Source: an uncultured Acidimicrobiia bacterium (GTDB taxonomy: Bacteria > Actinomycetota > Acidimicrobiia > Spongiisociales > UBA5794). Taken from it: 64,000 bases of DNA. The position numbers and the translations under genes are program-made. The stretch covers positions 1,610,914-1,674,913 of the forward strand of contig CAVWBO010000007.1 of assembly GCA_963753185.1 (NCBI GenBank), written 5' to 3'. This document shows, piece by piece, positions 22,130-58,224 of the stretch. Each line of letters starts with the position of its first letter. Positions within the stretch are counted from its first letter, which is position 1. The notes under the pieces were generated by a model. It was not told where the DNA came from, did no database searches, and worked only from the letters and a program-made list of their open reading frames with translations.

Positions 22130-23415
22130 GGTACCTCGTGCTCGGCTCCAGCCTGCGAGGCCTCTCCGATGCGACAGCCCTCGCGCTCGAGGACGGTCAC
22201 AGCGTCGCTGTCTACGACGCCGAGCACCCTGCCTCTGGCGTCGAATTCGAAGGTCCCGTCGAGGTCCTCCCGCGCGAATGGAACCAGGGCAACCTCGACG
22301 GCATCGATCGGGTCATCACGAGTCCGTGGTTCGCGGAGACCACGCCGCCACTTGCGGATGTCCTCGCAGCAGGTATCGATGTCGTCACGGAGGCAGGGTT
22401 TGGCCTCGAGCACCTCTCCCTACCCGTGGTCGCTGTCACGGGGACGAATGGGAAGACGACGGTCACCGAGGTGGCGACGGCGATGCTTCGAGCGTCGGGC
22501 GTCGACGCCCTCGCTGCGGGGAATATCGGCGTCCCTGTCTCATCGATCCGCCAGGGGGATGCCGAGATCCTGGTCCTCGAGCTGTCGTCGTACCAGCTCC
22601 GGTTCATGGACCCCGTCAAGGCTGTCGCTTCGACCGTGCTCAACATCGCACCCGATCACCTCGACTGGCATGGTTCATTCGCGGCGTACGCAGAGGCGAA
22701 GGCTCGAATCGTGCGCGATGCGCCCGCCGATTCGGTGTTCGCGTACGACCCAGGGGATCCGCTTGTGTCGCGAATCGCCACGTCCGCACCATGCAGGACG
22801 GTGCCGTGCTCGGGTACGACGGTGCCGATCAACGGCAACGGCGTCCACGAAGGTGAGATCGTGGTGAACGGACATCGGTATCGGCCGCAGACCGGTGACG
22901 CGTCCTTCCTGTTCGACCTCGTTGTTGCGGCGACCCTGGCATCTGCGTGCGGTGGCACCGTCGAGGGCATCCGGGGAGTGATCGAGGCCTTCGAACCGGG
23001 AGCACATCGCCGGGAGCTGGTTGGGACACTGGACGGCGTGCGCTTCGTCAATGACTCGAAGGCGACCAATCCCCATGCCGTGATGGCTGCGGTGTCGGAG
23101 TTCACATCGGTCGTCCTCCTCGTCGGCGGTCGGAACAAAGGCCTCGATCTCGCACCCCTCGTGTCCATCCCCGGTGTCATCCACCTCATCGCCTTCGGTG
23201 AGGCGGGACCGGAGATCGCAGGGGCGTCATCGGAACCCATCCCCGTCGTGCCGACACTCCGTGCGGCGTTCGCCCTCTCGCTCGCGGTTGCGCAACCGGG
23301 CGACACGGTCCTTCTCTCGCCGGGATGTGCGAGCTTCGACGAGTTCGACTCCTACGCCGCACGGGGGGATGCGTTCAGGGAAATGGTGGCGGCAGCAGGC
23401 GGAGTGGCGGCATGA
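22126..23415 (+). CDS. murD: UDP-MurNAc-L-Ala:D-Glu ligase MurD
   Basis: VTGTNGKTTVTE P-loop; Mur ligase C-terminal domain. Confidence 0.85.
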   Translation: MRYLVLGSSLRGLSDATALALEDGHSVAVYDAEHPASGVEFEGPVEVLPREWNQGNLDGIDRVITSPWFAETTPPLADVLAAGIDVVTEAGFGLEHLSLPVVAVTGTNGKTTVTEVATAMLRASGVDALAAGNIGVPVSSIRQGDAEILVLELSSYQLRFMDPVKAVASTVLNIAPDHLDWHGSFAAYAEAKARIVRDAPADSVFAYDPGDPLVSRIATSAPCRTVPCSGTTVPINGNGVHEGEIVVNGHRYRPQTGDASFLFDLVVAATLASACGGTVEGIRGVIEAFEPGAHRRELVGTLDGVRFVNDSKATNPHAVMAAVSEFTSVVLLVGGRNKGLDLAPLVSIPGVIHLIAFGEAGPEIAGASSEPIPVVPTLRAAFALSLAVAQPGDTVLLSPGCASFDEFDSYAARGDAFREMVAAAGGVAA

Positions 23416-30458: not shown

Positions 30459-31113
30459 GGCTCGATGCCGTGCTGGACCGGATTGCACGGGCATGCGCAC
30501 GTCGCGGTGTGGGGAGCGACGGCATCACACTCGTGGTCGTGTCGAAGCATCGCACGGACGAGGAGGTTCTCGCGGTGTACGAATGCGGCCAGCGCGTGTT
30601 CGCAGAGAATCGCGCACAGGAGCTCGCGCGCGACGCGACGCCGACCTCCCCGATGACATCGAATGGCACTTCGTTGGGCCCCTGCAGAGCCGGAAGGCGG
30701 CATCGGTCGGCGGGAACGCAGCGCTCCTGCAGTCGATGGACAGGCTGAAACTCGCTCGGATCTGGCGGGACCACTCCATCGACACACCGGTCCTGGTGCA
30801 GTTCAACCTGGCGGGAGAGCCGCAGAAGTCTGGGTTCCCGCCCGACGAGCCGGGTCGGGTCCTCGATGATCTCGTCACGCTCGGCCTCGATGTGAGGGGC
30901 GTGATGGCGATTCCTCCGAACGCCACCGATCCCGAGTCGGCGCGACCGTGGTTCGCCCGGCTCCGGGAGATTTTCGACCTCTACCGGAGGGACCTGCCGA
31001 CGATCGACACCTGTTCGATGGGTATGTCGAACGACCTCGAGGTCGCGATCGAGGAGGGTGCCACCATGGTGCGCATCGGACGGGCTATCTTTGACAGGAC
31101 AGCCGACACCTGA
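30446..31113 (+). pseudogene. yggS: PLP-homeostasis protein YggS (alanine-racemase-fold), frameshifted around 30631-30645
   Basis: The N-terminus (VVSKHRTDEEVLAVYECGQRVFAENRAQEL) is in frame 30446..30748. The rest (IEWHFVGPLQSRK...) is in frame 30493..31113. The shift lies in a gcgcgcgacgcgacgccgac repeat. Confidence 0.7.
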
Positions 31114-31135
31114 GACGACCTACGGGACGGTACGC

Positions 31136-31726
31136 ATGGCATCTCTGTGGAACAAGACGCTCTTCTACCTGGGTCTCATGGATGAGGACGCCCCGAGCGA
31201 CGAGGCCCGCGACCAGTCCGTCGGTGACGTACGCCCGATGGGAGCTGAACGACCAGGGACCCCGCCACCCGGGCAGATGTCGACGGTTCGCCCCCCGGGG
31301 AGTGGTGTCGCAGGACGCCGTGTCGAGCCTCCCGCATCGACCCGCCGCCAGATGTCGGGTGACCCCGGCCACGCGGAGGCAGGCGTGTACATCCACTCGA
31401 ACGTGTCATCCATCGGCGGGACGGACATGCCCATGCGGAGGACGGAACCGGAGTCCCAGATCATCGCCGCTCGGAACTTCTCGGACGCCCAGGCCCTCGC
31501 AGATGCGATCCGATCGGGCAGGAGCGTCGTCCTGGACCTTCGCGGCACCGAACCAGAGATGGTGAGGCGACTCGTCGACTTCGCCTCCGGCCTGACATAC
31601 GCGCTCGACGGGAAGATGTCGAAGACCTCGCAGGGCGTGATCCTCGTGACCCCGGGCGGTGTCAGCATCGGGATGGCTGAGCAGGAGCGGCTCTCCGCGC
31701 TCGGACTCTACGGATCAGCGAACTGA
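31136..31726 (+). CDS. sepF: cell division protein SepF
   Basis: MASLWNKTLFYLGLMDED N-terminus and a C-terminal DUF552 domain (VVLDLRGTEPEMVRRLVDFASGLTYALDGKM). Confidence 0.85.
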   Translation: MASLWNKTLFYLGLMDEDAPSDEARDQSVGDVRPMGAERPGTPPPGQMSTVRPPGSGVAGRRVEPPASTRRQMSGDPGHAEAGVYIHSNVSSIGGTDMPMRRTEPESQIIAARNFSDAQALADAIRSGRSVVLDLRGTEPEMVRRLVDFASGLTYALDGKMSKTSQGVILVTPGGVSIGMAEQERLSALGLYGSAN

Positions 31727-31998: not shown

Positions 31999-34900
31999 TC
32001 ACGATTCCGTCGGCGCCTTGCTCACGGTGACGGTCATCGACGATCCGGCCAGCTCCACCAGGTCGCCGTCGGTCGCATCCCGCTCGATACGGACCGCAAG
32101 GACCTCGGATGCGATGAGGTCGGCGTGGAGCCCGAAGCATGCGACCACGTCGTCGTCGTCGGAGTCCCACCGGACGACGATCCGATCGACAACGTCGAGG
32201 CCCAGGTCGCGGCGCGCTGCCTGGAGCCTGTTGACGACTTCGCGTGCAAGGCCCTCGATGCGCAGATCATCGTCGAGCCGCGTGTCGAGGGCCACGGACA
32301 GGGAGCCCTCCGTCGCGACGACGGTGCCTTCTCGAGCTGTGCGGCTGATCACGAGGTCGTCTGCCACGAGACCGAAGCCGGTCACGGCTTCCGGTACCCC
32401 GTCGAGGATCGAACTCAGGGTCGCCTGGTCCAGCCCTGCGATCGCGTCGGCGACCGTGCCCATGAGTTTTCCGAATCGCGGCCCGAGGACCCTGAAGTTG
32501 GGTTTGGCCTCGAGGTCGACCAGGCCTGCCTCGTCGGCGTGGACTTCGACGGAATGGACGTTGAGCTCCTCGGCGATGAGCTCGGCATGGCTCGATATCG
32601 CCGCGCCCTCTGATGCCGACCTCGTCACCACCGTGACGAGGCGCAGGGGCTGGCGGGTCCGTATGCCCTCGCGCTTGCGTAGGCCGCGTCCGAGATTGAC
32701 GACGGTTCGCACCGTCGACATGGCGGCCTCGAGGCCGGGGTCGATCGATGAAGGCACCGCCTCGGGGTAGTCGGTGTGGTGGATGCTCCCCGGAGCGTCC
32801 GCGTTGATGGATCGAACGAGCCCTTGGTAGATCTCCTCCGTCACGAACGGCAGCACGGGTGCGGCCACGGAGGCGAACGTCGTGAGCACCTCGTACAGCG
32901 TCGCGAAGGCCGAGAGCTTGTCGGCGTCGTCCTCGATGCCGCGATGAGTCCAGAACCGGCGTCGGCTCCTGCGGATGTACCAGTTGGTGAGATGCTCCAC
33001 GAACCCGATCACCCGAGGGATGACGGCGTAGAGCCGATACGCCTCCATCTCCCTGTTGACATCGGAGATCAGGCTCTGGATCATCGAAACGATCCATCGA
33101 TCGATCTCGGGACGATCGTCGAGTGGGGGAGCGCCTTTGAGGTCCTGTGCGGTCAGACCGTCCGCCGCTGCGTATGTGGTGAAGAACGAGTACGAGTTCC
33201 ACAGCGGCAGGAGGACCGTGCGAACGACCTCTCGAACCCCAGCCTCGGAGAACCTGAGGGGCTCACCCCGCACGACGGGAGAGTTGATCAGATAGGCGCG
33301 AAGGGCGTCTGCCCCGAACTCGTCGAGCACATGGGAGGGATCCGGGTAGTTGCGGAGGGACTTCGACATCTTCCTGCCGTCCTCCGCGAGGATCATCCCT
33401 GTCACCACACAGTTCTGGAACGGGGCCTCGTCACGGATCGCAGTCGACAACACGAGCAGGGTGTAGAACCAGCCGCGCGTCTGGTCGAGCCCCTCGGCGA
33501 TGAAGTCCGCAGGGAATCGCTGCTCGAAGCGTTCGAGGTTCTCGAACGGATAATGGATCTGGGCGAACGGCATGGATCCGCTCTCGAACCAACAGTCGAG
33601 CACCTCGGGAACCCTGCGCATCGTTCCCGCGCATTCGTCGCAGGTCCACGTGATGGCATCGACGAAGTGTTTGTGCAGATCCTCGAGGCGCGTACCAGAG
33701 AGCTCAGCCAGTTGGTCGCGCGACGACACGGCCCTCATGTGCCCTCCCTCGTCGCACTCCCAAACAGGGATGGCCGAACCCCAGTATCGGTTGCGGCTGA
33801 TCGCCCAGTCCCTTGCGCCCTCGAGCCAGTTCCCGAATCGGTTCGCGCCGATCGCCTCGGGTATCCATCGGATTCCCTTGTTGATCTCGACCATGCGATC
33901 CCTGAACTGCTCGACTGCGACGAACCATGTAGGGATGGCCTTGTAGATCAGTGGTGTTCCCGTCCGCCAGCAGAACGGGTACGAGTGGTTGATGGTTGCC
34001 CGAGCAAAGAGCGCACCGGATTCTGCGAGAAGCGCCATCAGGGTTGCATCGGCCTCCTTGACGTTCATTCCCGAAACGTCAGGCACCTCGTCCGTGAAGC
34101 GGGCCTCCTCATCGACCGGATCCACCAGAACGTCGATCCCTGCCTCACCGAGGGCACGGAAGTCCGCTTCACCGTATGCCGGAGCCATGTGGACGAGGCC
34201 CGTACCCTCGTCTGTGGTCACATCGTTCGAGTGGATCACGACGAATGCACCGTCGGCCGCCCTCTCCGAGAAGTAGGGGAACGGCGGCCGATAGCGGGTG
34301 CCGATCAGGTCCGACCCCATCGCCGTACCGAGAACTTCGGCATCCTCGCCGAAGATCCGCTCGACGAGGTCTGTTGCCGACCAGTAGACGTGTTGTCCGG
34401 ATCGGATCCGTGTGTATTCGACGTTCGACCCGACGGCGATCGCCAGGTTTGCAGGGACGGTCCACGGGGTCGTCGTCCAGAACAGCAACCGATCGCCTGA
34501 GGTGACGGGACCATGTCCGTCGAGGACCTCCACGGCGACGGTGATGGCGGGATCGTCCACATCGCGGTAGTCCAGGTTCGCTTCGAAGTTCGACAGCGGC
34601 GTCGTCGCACCGTACGAGTACGGGAGAACCTTGAAGTCCCGATAGACGAGACCTCGATCCCACAGCTGTCCGAAGACCCACCAGACGCTTTCCATGAAGT
34701 CGACGTCCATCGTCTTGTAGTCGTTCTCGAAGTCGACCCACCGTCCGATGCGCCCTGTGATCTCGTACCAGTCCTCGGTCGTCGTATTGACCATCGCTCG
34801 GCACGCCTCGTTGAAAACGTCGATTCCGAGCGCCTGGATCTGGCGTGGACCCGAGACACCGAGTTGCTTTTCGACCTCCATCTCGACGGGGAGGCCGTGC

Positions 34901-35172
34901 GTATCCCACCCGAACCTCCGCTCGACGCGGTGTCCTCGCATGGTCCAATATCGCGGGACGATGTCCTTCACGACGCCTTGGAGGATGTGCCCGTAATGCA
35001 TCGACCCCGTGGCGAAAGGTGGCCCGTCGTAGAACGTGTACTCGGTCTCTGGGCTGCGAAGGTCAACGGACCTCGCGAAGGCGTCGATCGATTCCCAGAA
35101 CGCGAGGATCCGTGCGTCGAGCGCAGGGAAATCGACGGCGGAATCCACTCGGGGGAAGCTGGTCTCTGTCAC
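31999..35172 (-). CDS. ileS: isoleucyl-tRNA synthetase (type 2/eukaryote-like form)
   Basis: HIGH motif (HYGHIL), KMSKS motif (KMSKSLRN), and a C-terminal zinc-binding region. The start was moved to GTG 35172 (VTETSFPRVDSAVDFPALDARILAFW), preceded by a UGAGGA SD, because the track start 35262 lies upstream of the T-box motif. Confidence 0.85.
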   Translation of the reverse strand: MTETSFPRVDSAVDFPALDARILAFWESIDAFARSVDLRSPETEYTFYDGPPFATGSMHYGHILQGVVKDIVPRYWTMRGHRVERRFGWDTHGLPVEMEVEKQLGVSGPRQIQALGIDVFNEACRAMVNTTTEDWYEITGRIGRWVDFENDYKTMDVDFMESVWWVFGQLWDRGLVYRDFKVLPYSYGATTPLSNFEANLDYRDVDDPAITVAVEVLDGHGPVTSGDRLLFWTTTPWTVPANLAIAVGSNVEYTRIRSGQHVYWSATDLVERIFGEDAEVLGTAMGSDLIGTRYRPPFPYFSERAADGAFVVIHSNDVTTDEGTGLVHMAPAYGEADFRALGEAGIDVLVDPVDEEARFTDEVPDVSGMNVKEADATLMALLAESGALFARATINHSYPFCWRTGTPLIYKAIPTWFVAVEQFRDRMVEINKGIRWIPEAIGANRFGNWLEGARDWAISRNRYWGSAIPVWECDEGGHMRAVSSRDQLAELSGTRLEDLHKHFVDAITWTCDECAGTMRRVPEVLDCWFESGSMPFAQIHYPFENLERFEQRFPADFIAEGLDQTRGWFYTLLVLSTAIRDEAPFQNCVVTGMILAEDGRKMSKSLRNYPDPSHVLDEFGADALRAYLINSPVVRGEPLRFSEAGVREVVRTVLLPLWNSYSFFTTYAAADGLTAQDLKGAPPLDDRPEIDRWIVSMIQSLISDVNREMEAYRLYAVIPRVIGFVEHLTNWYIRRSRRRFWTHRGIEDDADKLSAFATLYEVLTTFASVAAPVLPFVTEEIYQGLVRSINADAPGSIHHTDYPEAVPSSIDPGLEAAMSTVRTVVNLGRGLRKREGIRTRQPLRLVTVVTRSASEGAAISSHAELIAEELNVHSVEVHADEAGLVDLEAKPNFRVLGPRFGKLMGTVADAIAGLDQATLSSILDGVPEAVTGFGLVADDLVISRTAREGTVVATEGSLSVALDTRLDDDLRIEGLAREVVNRLQAARRDLGLDVVDRIVVRWDSDDDDVVACFGLHADLIASEVLAVRIERDATDGDLVELAGSSMTVTVSKAPTES

Positions 35173-35174
35173 GG

Positions 35175-35365
35175 CGTCGTCCTCAATCTCGTCACCTCTC
35201 GGTGCCGGGACGGGGGACCCGCGGTACCACCCGGCTTGCCAGAACGAGTCTGGCCGCTCCATTCGACCCGTTTCGTGGGCTGACCGACGGGTTCTACTCC
35301 CGACGCCAAACGGCCGTCGGTTTCTTCCCGTAGCTCGGAGGTGATGTTCCCCTTCGCAGGTGGCG
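35175..35365 (-). ncRNA. T-box leader (Ile specifier) regulating ileS
   Basis: Exact T-box core GGGUGGUACCGCG on the minus strand (plus 35220-35232), about 45 nt upstream of the ileS start. A candidate specifier loop (AACAUCA, giving AUC followed by A) lies near 35344-35346, about 120 nt 5' of the T-box. Confidence 0.7.
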
Positions 35366-35488
35366 GCCTCTCACCGGCACCGCCTCGCTGTGGACCTGGT
35401 ATCGGAGGGGATTCGTCCTCGTCGACGCGCCTCAAGAGGATAGCGCGCCGGGGACGGACATCGAGCCGCGAGCCCCTATCGTCGCGTC

Positions 35489-35788
35489 GTGTCATCTGCG
35501 ATCAGGCCGTCCGAGTCAGGCGTCGTCGTGGACGTCCTCGTCCAGCCAAACGCCAGTGCGGCGGAGATCGTGGGACCCCATGGGGACCGCATCAAGGTAC
35601 GGGTCACGGTTCCACCCGAGCGGTTGCGAGCGAACGAAGCGGTGTGCACCCTGCTTGCGCGTGCCTGTGGCGTGCGCGGCGCAACCGTTGTGGCTGGTCG
35701 AACAACGCGAGCAAAGACCGTCGAACTCCATGGCGCGGACATCGCGAAGGTCCGATTGGTGCTGCTCGGACCGCAGAAAGGAACGTGA
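35489..35788 (+). CDS. YggU-like DUF167 protein
   Basis: 99 aa; the DUF167 pattern (VVVDVLVQPNASAAEIVG...RIKVRVTVPPERLRANEAVCTLLA) is read directly from the sequence. Divergent from ileS. Confidence 0.6.
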   Translation: MSSAIRPSESGVVVDVLVQPNASAAEIVGPHGDRIKVRVTVPPERLRANEAVCTLLARACGVRGATVVAGRTTRAKTVELHGADIAKVRLVLLGPQKGT

Positions 35789-35822
35789 CGGTGCTACATT
35801 CCTCCCGCCAGCAGGAGGAGAC

Positions 35823-36194
35823 ATGGCCAGGCAACTCTCAGCTTCGACGCTCGACCGTCTCCGCCGCAAACTCGCGGAAGAGCGTGAACGCCTCGAGCAG
35901 ATAATCGACGAGCATGAGCGGGAGCGTGAGGAGAGCAAGCTCTCCGAAGCATCGGCCGACCGCAGCGCCGATCCCGACAACGTCGATGGCGGTGCCATCG
36001 AAGTCGAGATGGAGATGGACATCGCGATGGTCCAGAATGCCCGAGGCCTGCTCGAACGTGTCAAACATGCACAGGATCGCATGCAGAAGGGTCTCTACGG
36101 AACATGCGAAGTGACGGGCGAACCGATTCCGCTGGCTCGGCTGGAAGCCCTGCCGTACGCGACGACGACGGTGGAAGCGGCAAACCGCATCTGA
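35823..36194 (+). CDS. DksA/TraR-family protein, zinc-finger cysteines mostly absent
   Basis: ATG preceded by a GGAGGAG SD; coiled-coil N-terminus. The C-terminal GLYGTCEVTGEPIPLARLEALPYATTTVEA retains the DksA/TraR finger spacing but has only one Cys. Confidence 0.6.
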   Translation: MARQLSASTLDRLRRKLAEERERLEQIIDEHEREREESKLSEASADRSADPDNVDGGAIEVEMEMDIAMVQNARGLLERVKHAQDRMQKGLYGTCEVTGEPIPLARLEALPYATTTVEAANRI

Positions 36195-36646
36195 GCAACA
36201 GGCTGCTCGCCATCGCCGTCGCGGGTGCGGTGGTCCTCGTCGACCAGGTCACCAAGTGGTGGGCCGTCAATGAGCTGGCGGACGGTCCGGTCGTCCTCAT
36301 CGACGACTTCCTCCAGCTCCGTCTGCTGTTCAACACGGGAGCATCCTTCTCGATCCTGTCCAACGCAGGGCCGATCCTCGCCATCGTCGCCTTCGGCGTG
36401 ATCGGCCTCATCATCTACATCCTCGGTGATGCATCCCGTCGCGTCGAAGCCGTTGCCCTGGGACTCGTGCTCGGCGGCGCAGTCGGCAACCTGCTCGACA
36501 GGGTTCTTCGCGGAGATGGGCTCCTCGACGGAGCGGTCGTCGACTTCATCGACTTCTCGTTCTTCGCGACGTTCAACGTGGCCGACGCGGCGATCAACGT
36601 CGGAGTCGTGCTCCTTCTGATCGCGACCTTCGTCCGCCGCCGATGA
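36104..36646 (+). CDS. lspA: lipoprotein signal peptidase II
   Basis: Four-TM signal peptidase II pattern (VDQVTKWWAV...NTGASFSIL...DFIDF...FNVADAAI). The start is uncertain; the only in-frame start is ATG 36104, which overlaps the upstream gene. Confidence 0.8.
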   Translation: MRSDGRTDSAGSAGSPAVRDDDGGSGKPHLSNRLLAIAVAGAVVLVDQVTKWWAVNELADGPVVLIDDFLQLRLLFNTGASFSILSNAGPILAIVAFGVIGLIIYILGDASRRVEAVALGLVLGGAVGNLLDRVLRGDGLLDGAVVDFIDFSFFATFNVADAAINVGVVLLLIATFVRRR

Positions 36647-37590
36647 CGTCCGTCGTCGTCCCCATGGAGCTCGATGGCGAACGAGCGGACAAAGTGATCG
36701 CCGTGGTTCTCGACGTGGCTCGGTCAGAGAGTCGTGGTGCCTTCGACGAGGGAAGGGTGTCCATCGCCGGCCATGCCGTCAGGCCGGGGCAACGCGTTGC
36801 AGGAGGCGATCAGATCGAGGTCGAGCTCGCTGCGAGGGCCGTCGACCTCGTCGCTGATCCTTCCGTGCCGTTCTCCGTCGTCTATGAGGATTCCGATCTT
36901 GCCGTCGTGGACAAGCCCGTCGGCGTGGTCGTCCATCCTCCATCCGACCGGGCTGCACCCTCGCTCGTCCATGGATTGATCGCACGCTACCCGGAGATCG
37001 TGGGCGTCGGCGTCGACGGGAGGTGGGGTATCGTGCATCGACTCGACAGGGACACATCCGGCCTGCTCGTGGTTGCCAGGACGCATCGTGCCCACGAAGC
37101 GCTCAGCGAGCTGATGCGGTCCCGGCGGGTGTCCCGTCGATACCTGTCGCTCGTTGCTGGTGCATTCGATGCCGCTCGGGGGACGATCGATGCGCCGATC
37201 GGGCGTGATCCCTCGAATCCGACGAGGATGCGGATCGACCGGGCCGGTCGAAGGTCGATCACGCACTACCGAAGGATCGCGACCTGGGCGGACCGCGACC
37301 TGTCCCTGGTGTACGTAGCCCTCGAGACGGGGAGGACGCACCAGATCAGGGTTCACATGCAGGCGATCGACCATCCCATCGTCGGGGACCCGTCGTACGG
37401 CCGTCCGGGTGGCGACGCCGACCCGGGGAGGCCGTGGCTCCATGCCCAACGGTTGGTCTTCGACCATCCGTTCGCGGATCGGGTCGTCGATGTCACGGCC
37501 GATCTTCCCGCCGATCTCGTCGATAGTCTTGCGCGCATCGGGCCGCCGACGAGCGGCTCGATCGACGACTTCGCCGAGGAGCTGCCATGA
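36643..37590 (+). CDS. RluA-family pseudouridine synthase (RluD-like)
   Basis: S4-like N-terminus and the catalytic HRLDRDTSGLLVVART motif. Confidence 0.8.
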   Translation: MTSVVVPMELDGERADKVIAVVLDVARSESRGAFDEGRVSIAGHAVRPGQRVAGGDQIEVELAARAVDLVADPSVPFSVVYEDSDLAVVDKPVGVVVHPPSDRAAPSLVHGLIARYPEIVGVGVDGRWGIVHRLDRDTSGLLVVARTHRAHEALSELMRSRRVSRRYLSLVAGAFDAARGTIDAPIGRDPSNPTRMRIDRAGRRSITHYRRIATWADRDLSLVYVALETGRTHQIRVHMQAIDHPIVGDPSYGRPGGDADPGRPWLHAQRLVFDHPFADRVVDVTADLPADLVDSLARIGPPTSGSIDDFAEELP

Positions 37591-58080: not shown

Positions 58081-58141
58081 ACCTTCAGTTCGCAGTGCGG
58101 CGTCTGCCGATGGAACCTCATGGACATGACGCGTCGCGCCG

Positions 58142-58224
58142 TACCGGGAGTGGGACTCGAACCCACACGAGCTTTCGCCCAACGGATTTTGAGTCCGCCG
58201 CGTCTACCATTCCGCCATCCCGGC
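58142..58224 (-). tRNA. tRNA-Leu (anticodon CAA), CCA not encoded
   Basis: Hand-folded: acceptor GCCGGGA/TCCCGGT, D-arm GCGGAATGGTAGACGC, anticodon loop CTCAAAA, a long variable arm, and T-arm GTGGGTTCGAGTCCCAC. Confidence 0.75.

Follow-up and report, generated by a model that had tools for sequence, protein, structure and literature searches.

T-box riboswitches that act on translation have been described upstream of ileS in Actinobacteria, including a few in which Stem I is of the canonical long form (PMC7583486; PMC11297988). The leaders of Mycobacterium tuberculosis, M. smegmatis and Nocardia farcinica are examples, described by Sherwood, Grundy and Henkin (2015), to whom PMC7583486 and PMC11297988 refer. 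According to the former review, Stem I is intermediate or ultrashort and devoid of the elbow platform in the majority of translational T-boxes, with "a few" retaining the canonical long version (PMC7583486).

The leader described here lies in a 64-kb stretch of DNA (hereafter the window, meaning the whole stretch analysed) from an uncultured lineage of Acidimicrobiia, a host unlike the Mycobacterium and Nocardia models; no description of a T-box from Acidimicrobiia emerged from a literature search. Like the translational ileS T-boxes of Actinobacteria, it precedes the same gene and displays an AUC specifier, a Stem II with an S-turn, a Stem IIA/B pseudoknot, a Stem III, a discriminator with a UGGN bulge and an alternative helix that sequesters the Shine-Dalgarno (SD) sequence, along with the lack of a terminator. 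It is set apart by a canonical Stem I of 96 nt, whereas the Stem I of the M. tuberculosis, M. smegmatis and N. farcinica leaders, as summarized in the review, is ultrashort or intermediate and lacks the interdigitated T-loop platform (PMC7583486). Its overall architecture and every conserved motif are instead those of the transcriptional T-boxes of Firmicutes (typified by Bacillus subtilis tyrS and glyQS, and forming the bulk of RF00230), the shared elements being the long Stem I, the K-turn, the specifier loop, the AG bulge, the distal loop and a bulged helix containing the T-box sequence. The Firmicutes versions differ in possessing an intrinsic terminator with a U-tract where the window has an SD sequestrator, and the window's leader is probably kept below the RF00230 gathering threshold by its high G+C content.

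Taken together, the match to RF00230, the covariation, the presence of two mutually exclusive folds, the lack of a terminator and the evidence that the 30 codons ahead of the start are non-coding identify the minus-strand segment 35434-35203, with a probability of about 85%, as the 5' leader of the ileS mRNA and a tRNA-Ile-responsive T-box riboswitch acting on translation initiation. The binding of tRNA-Ile, the sensing of its charging state and the translational read-out are attributed to it by analogy with the known mechanism of the T-box family. All features of the leader lie on the minus strand, and their coordinates are mostly given in descending order, in the direction of transcription.

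Recovery of the leader and its conserved motifs

The initial annotation had placed an isoleucine T-box upstream of a minus-strand ileS. The Rfam model RF00230 matches the leader RNA (35203-35434) over its full length, from model position 1 to 219 of 219, with a score of 65.4 bits and E-values of 4.9e-14 in a 501-nt search and 6.2e-12 across the whole window. Given that the curated gathering score of RF00230 is 93 bits, the leader is significant by E-value and not by gathering score, and the anticipated hit to this model is thus obtained in length and significance, while falling short of the curated cut-off. At the gathering threshold, a default Rfam scan of the window reported a single tRNA and missed the leader, which was recovered upon repeating the scan with E-value reporting; no second T-box was detected in the window by this means. 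A match to IRES_Bip at 22427-22488 (E = 0.0098; 22.9 bits against 40) is weak and was taken as chance.

Direct reading of the strand locates the T-box core, GGGUGGUACCGCG, at 35232-35220, exactly where it had been claimed. The heptamer AACAUCA occupies 35348-35342, so that the AUC triplet (35345-35343), which is followed by a purine (A35342), lies 113 nt 5' of the core, close to the 120 nt or so first estimated. The hexamer UGAGGA is found at 35185-35180, and the SD sequence proper, GAGGA (35184-35180), ends 7 nt before a GTG codon at 35172-35170. This codon is 47 nt downstream of the core, in agreement with the approximate value of 45 nt proposed earlier.

Comparative support for the T-box fold

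For comparison we used the closest relatives of the window's ileS, 80 loci from metagenome-assembled genomes of Acidimicrobiia (Actinomycetota), with 62-83% identity over the first 291 residues of the protein; they are denoted below by L numbers where individual loci have to be told apart. The pattern GGTGGNACCG is present in 38 of the 80 loci, 50-81 nt upstream of the start codon, and 37 of these contain GGTGGTACCG. These 37 relatives share the window's core at the same place, the thirty-eighth match being L043, whose core is a variant and whose leader reads GUC instead of AUC. All 18 relatives that were tested with RF00230 gave full-length matches below the gathering score. Including the window, the 19 tested leaders (drawn from L001-L023 and L042) score between 36 and 77 bits, and a value below 93 is therefore typical of the clade and not peculiar to the window copy. 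Composition and the training of the model, rather than decay, probably account for it.

The fold was examined on a MAFFT alignment (A2) of 28 leaders with a long Stem I. Unguided, RNAalifold retrieves from it Stem I (three helices and the base), Stem II, Stem III and the bulged antisequestrator, with compensatory changes at 28 of 40 pairs. For a recount, the closing pairs of the K-turn and the Stem IIA/B pseudoknot were added by hand to this structure. In the resulting T-box structure 92.5% of the positions are paired across the 28 leaders, as against 33-50% in controls whose 3' partners were slid by 1-3 columns, and double changes occur at 32 of 48 pairs, as against 13-18 in the slid controls; none of 500 shuffles attains any of the observed measures of pairing or covariation. 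The initial proposal of a T-box is thereby borne out by both the model match and the covariation in the 28 related leaders. The pairs of the antisequestrator are themselves invariant, and covariation is hence neutral with respect to this helix.

Folding energy does not set the region apart from shuffled sequence: the 301-nt fold is no better than its shuffles (z = 0.32), and the values for Stem I alone and for the sequestrator are z = -0.23 and z = -1.33, respectively. Minimum free energy is thus non-discriminating at 67% G+C, and the structural support is comparative, in the form of covariation.

The same comparisons bear on the question of whether the leader could be a decaying, non-functional remnant of a T-box. 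Such a reading might draw on the sub-gathering Rfam score, on the absence of the core from 41 of the 80 relatives and on the case of L006, which is without a T-box amid T-box-bearing relatives. It is nevertheless very improbable, given that the low score (36-77 bits) is common to the whole clade and that every functional motif is intact, with purifying selection evident across 28-38 leaders on the specifier with its purine, the G.A pairs of the K-turn, the AGCGA motif and the distal loop, as well as on the T-box sequence of 19 nt and the pairing of the SD.

Stem I, the specifier and the central helices

Stem I of the window's leader is of the canonical long form, extending over 96 nt (35428-35333), as delineated by the Rfam alignment, the column map and covariation in all four of its helices. 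Its base forms a K-turn, in which the closing pairs G35428-C35333 and C35427-G35334 are followed by a bulge at 35426-35424 and by tandem G.A pairs between 35423-35422 and 35336-35335; the G and A residues concerned are invariant in 28 leaders, a conservation seen at the level of sequence. Further up, the AG bulge is represented by AGCGA at 35389-35385, which aligns to AGAGA of RF00230, and the distal loop (35378-35368) holds GGUGAGAG at 35375-35368, which aligns to GGUGaaA of the model. Among the 28 long-Stem-I leaders AGCGA is retained in all and RGUGNRAG in 27, again as primary sequence, and the helix flanking them covaries; this conservation shows that the motifs of the elbow platform are under selection.

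The expectation of a very short Stem I, carried over from background on actinobacterial ileS T-boxes, is accordingly inapplicable to the window, whose Stem I is complete with K-turn, AG bulge and distal loop. An ultrashort version does occur in other members of the same clade. A truncated Stem I is a typical and non-obligatory mark of the translational subclass, and its place is taken here by 96 nt bearing the platform motifs; together with the sub-gathering Rfam score, this is the only respect in which the leader departs from the defining features. Membership in the subclass is still allowed, since the review mentions a few of its members with a long Stem I (PMC7583486), and the window's leader is one of this minority of translational T-boxes with the canonical long form.

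The specifier, AUC for isoleucine, together with the purine A35342 occupies 35345-35342, aligns to the specifier position of RF00230 and is in keeping with the identity of the downstream gene as ileS. The triplet is invariant in all 38 leaders, the base preceding it is variable (C in 27, T in 6, G in 3 and A in 2), and the base following it is always a purine (A in 34 and G in 4), a combination that renders the specifier unambiguous. Registers shifted by one base, which would read CAU or UCA, were ruled out on the same grounds, namely the free variation of the base before AUC and the constancy of the purine after it.

Downstream of Stem I the leader contains the elements expected of the family. 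Stem II (35331-35287) encloses an internal loop with GAAGA and AGUAGAA strands, corresponding to the S-turn region; its two helices (helices 6 and 7) are paired in 97% and 91% of cases, with compensatory changes at 6 of 7 pairs. The Stem IIA/B pseudoknot (35286-35267) combines helix IIA (35286-35284 with 35276-35274) and helix IIB (35279-35277 with 35269-35267), which are paired in 88% and 81% of cases, respectively, with compensatory changes at 4 of 6 pairs, all of them assigned by hand; the window's own third pair in IIA is a G.A mismatch. The Stem III hairpin (35254-35238) is paired in 99.4% of cases and shows compensatory changes at 6 of 6 pairs. On the whole, helices 6-10, comprising Stem II, the pseudoknot and Stem III, are 81-99% paired, with compensatory changes at 16 of 19 pairs.

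The translation start of ileS

The gene downstream of the leader encodes a protein of 1057 residues when read from the GTG at 35172 (31999-35172, minus strand). It contains the Pfam domains tRNA-synt_1 (E = 1.5e-142), Anticodon_1 and DUF5915, and the best PDB matches of the reading frame are isoleucine-tRNA ligases. The longest open reading frame, 31999-35262, begins 30 codons further upstream with an in-frame ATG at 35262 and translates the T-box core as part of ...FWQAGWYRGSP.... The initial annotation had argued that this start lies inside the riboswitch and that the N-terminus derived from it is wrong.

Two readings of these 30 codons have to be weighed. If ATG 35262 were the real start, the T-box-like sequence would encode a conserved N-terminal extension of IleS (MERPDSFWQAGWYRG...), and the frame is indeed open from this ATG in the window; among the relatives, 25 of 38 likewise show no interruption of the frame across the core, as chance would predict in GC-rich DNA. 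Conservation as protein is at odds with the distances between the core and the start codon, which fall in phases 0, 1 and 2 in 10, 13 and 13 leaders, respectively, and with the occurrence of an in-frame stop between the two in 13 of 38 relatives. The region also shows compensatory base-pair changes. Furthermore, all tblastn matches in the 80 relatives start at residues 1-6 of the GTG-started protein, with none reaching upstream of the GTG, and at the same place the relatives carry a start codon, GTG or ATG, together with an SD sequence. Alignments with solved IleS structures concur: residues 43-44 of the long frame correspond to residues 8-9 of the solved proteins, whose N-termini are thereby placed some 5 residues past the GTG. 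Finally, ATG 35262 is not preceded by an SD sequence, in contrast to the GTG with GAGGA 7 nt upstream.

The possibility of a coding extension is on this evidence negligible. The true start of ileS is the GTG at 35172-35170, and the upstream extension is not protein, as follows from the occurrence of all three phases, the in-frame stops, the limits of the tblastn matches, the PDB alignments and the compensatory changes at paired positions. The earlier view of the N-terminus is hereby upheld, relatives and PDB proteins alike beginning near the GTG, and the correction of the start from ATG 35262 to GTG 35172 removes 30 false codons from the gene.

Antisequestrator, sequestrator and the probable mode of control

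The conserved T-box sequence AANNNGGGUGGNACCGCG is represented in the window by CAAGCCGGGUGGUACCGCG at 35238-35220, which supplies the 5' strand and the bulge of the antisequestrator and is invariant in 28 relatives. The antisequestrator, or discriminator, spans 35234-35205 as a bulged helix of -19.4 kcal/mol, in which helix A1 pairs 35234-35230 with 35209-35205 and helix A2 pairs 35222-35219 with 35213-35210. When the segment 35240-35200 is folded alone, the 7-nt bulge UGGUACC (35229-35223) is left unpaired, and the UGGU within it is complementary to an ACCA 3' end. A UGGU of this kind fits a tRNA with discriminator base A, as is the case for bacterial tRNA-Ile.

The alternative to this helix is a sequestrator hairpin at 35222-35174, with a minimum free energy of -21.6 kcal/mol for the segment 35222-35165. 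In it the strand GGGUCC..CGUCC.. (35220-35207) pairs with the SD region GAGGAC (35184-35179) around an inner hairpin CACC-GAGA-GGUG, engaging 5 of the window's 6 SD nucleotides. As the two structures share the strand 35222-35205, they are mutually exclusive, and the search for alternative folds thus returns a competing pair of comparable stability (-19.4 vs -21.6 kcal/mol). The sequestrator fold is the more stable of the two in 37 of 38 leaders. Three or more SD nucleotides are paired with the antisequestrator strand in 31 of 38 leaders, and the minimum-energy fold is without such pairing in the other 7; part of these 7 misses is due to the automated assignment of start codons, which erred in a few relatives (e.g. 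L050 and L063) and so lowered the SD-pairing count.

No intrinsic terminator was found on either strand of 34900-36200, and a U-run after the hairpin is absent from the window and from 37 relatives. Given the hairpin that buries the SD sequence and the lack of a terminator, the leader most likely belongs with the translational T-boxes known from actinobacterial ileS genes. This agrees with the initial preference for SD sequestration over termination, an SD-sequestering helix being present in 31 of 38 leaders without terminator or U-run.

A T-box acting on transcription would require either that the hairpin at 35222-35174 serve as a U-tract-less ("I-shaped") terminator or that Rho-dependent termination take place within ileS once translation is blocked. 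The sequestrator is a stable GC-rich hairpin, and a long Stem I with an elbow platform is characteristic of T-boxes that control transcription, where the tRNA has to be captured quickly (PMC7583486); Rho-dependent polarity may in addition arise as a secondary consequence. Transcriptional control is nonetheless unlikely as the primary mode, in view of the lack of any terminator-like site, the absence of a U-run after the hairpin in the window and 37 relatives, and the nature of the alternative helix, whose 3' strand in 31 of 38 leaders is the SD sequence itself, located 5-9 nt away from the start codon; it is this last feature that defines the translational class (PMC7583486; PMC11297988).

Under translational control, the leader would be expected to operate as follows. 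The AUC specifier in Stem I would be available for pairing with the tRNA-Ile anticodon, the AG bulge and the distal loop of this stem would stack against the elbow of the tRNA, and the codon-anticodon helix would be buttressed by Stem II and the IIA/B pseudoknot. If the bound tRNA were uncharged, its free ACCA end would pair with the UGGU of the bulge and stabilise the antisequestrator (35234-35205), leaving the SD sequence GAGGA (35184-35180) and the GTG at 35172 free, so that IleS would be made. With a charged tRNA the slightly more stable sequestrator (35222-35174) would form instead, pair with the SD sequence and block initiation.

Putative promoter and gene neighbourhood

A sigma-70 consensus scan found no promoter. 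Comparison with the relatives points to a putative -10 hexamer of the TANNNT type, TATCCT at 35442-35437, just upstream of the leader. In 31 of the 37 related leaders a regular-expression search detects a TANNNT hexamer at a fixed distance, 12-17 nt ahead of the first pair of Stem I, and in 4 of the 6 leaders that it missed (L011, L016, L019 and L026) the hexamer can be read from alignment A1, the remaining two being L021 and L022. TATCCT probably serves as the -10 element in the promoter of ileS, and the conserved hexamer predicts a transcription start at about 35431-35429, just 5' of Stem I.

Divergent from ileS on the plus strand is a cluster of three genes at 35556-37590, namely an open reading frame for a DksA/TraR-type zinc-finger protein (35556-36194), lspA (36104-36646) and a gene for an RluD-like pseudouridine synthase (36643-37590). 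The zinc-finger domain is located at the C-terminus of the first of these, whose real start is for this reason probably later than annotated. On the other side ileS is flanked by two convergent plus-strand genes, yggS-like (30493-31113) and sepF (31058-31726). The sole tRNA gene of the 64-kb window is tRNA-Leu(CAA) at 58141-58224 on the minus strand, and no tRNA-Ile gene is present in it.

Possible truncation and loss among the relatives

Several close relatives of the window have an ultrashort Stem I, in which the GAGGA base is separated from the AUC specifier by about 15-20 nt. Three groups of such leaders are apparent, the first comprising L004:1296-1459, L005:1298-1462 and L042:1298-1462, the second L019:1264-1431, L021:1266-1432 and L022:1276-1444, and the third L050:1298-1471 and L063:1297-1468, alongside the intermediate L069:1284-1469. 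In a rough neighbour-joining tree of the N-terminal regions of IleS the ultrashort leaders fall into three separate clades nested among leaders with a long Stem I, suggesting at least three independent truncations. Two further leaders are aberrant: L043:1215-1505 reads GUC instead of AUC, aligns poorly and deviates in its core (GGUGGGACCGUG), and L032:1229-1519 retains AUC and the core together with an unalignable Stem I and a long insertion in Stem II.

The T-box core is absent from 41 of the 80 related ileS loci, in which up to 1500 nt of upstream sequence contain no TGGNACC; L018, with too little upstream sequence to be judged, is counted outside these 41. The loci without a core include L006, L020, L024, L028, L029, L031, L033, L034, L037, L038, L044, L045, L047-L049, L051, L052 and L068, among others. 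In 18 core-less loci that were scanned, RF00230 gave no match at E <= 0.1. A divergent or more distant T-box in the core-less loci was also considered and ruled out, given the lack of TGGNACC within 1500 nt or less and the lack of an RF00230 match in the 18 loci scanned. L006 has a short upstream intergenic region and is nested among relatives that bear a T-box.

On the basis of a tree that is admittedly crude, these patterns suggest that the truncation of Stem I and the loss of the T-box have occurred repeatedly in Acidimicrobiia. A more specific scenario, for which we consider the prospects evenly balanced, is that the window's leader, with its long elbow-binding Stem I and its SD sequestrator, exhibits the ancestral state, that Stem I was cut down to the ultrashort version at least three times independently, and that the riboswitch as a whole was lost in other lineages.

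Implications

In terms of biological principle the leader offers nothing new, tRNA-Ile-dependent translational control of ileS being already established in Actinobacteria. Its practical bearing is on annotation: standard Rfam annotation misses the T-box leaders of this high-G+C clade systematically, and riboswitch censuses of Acidimicrobiia consequently undercount them on account of the gathering threshold. A modest point of biological interest is the co-occurrence here of the translational platform with a full canonical Stem I, the ultrashort form being found in close relatives. If the window's leader does preserve the ancestral state, the clade would provide a natural series of closely related leaders in which to ask why translational T-boxes can dispense with contact to the tRNA elbow.
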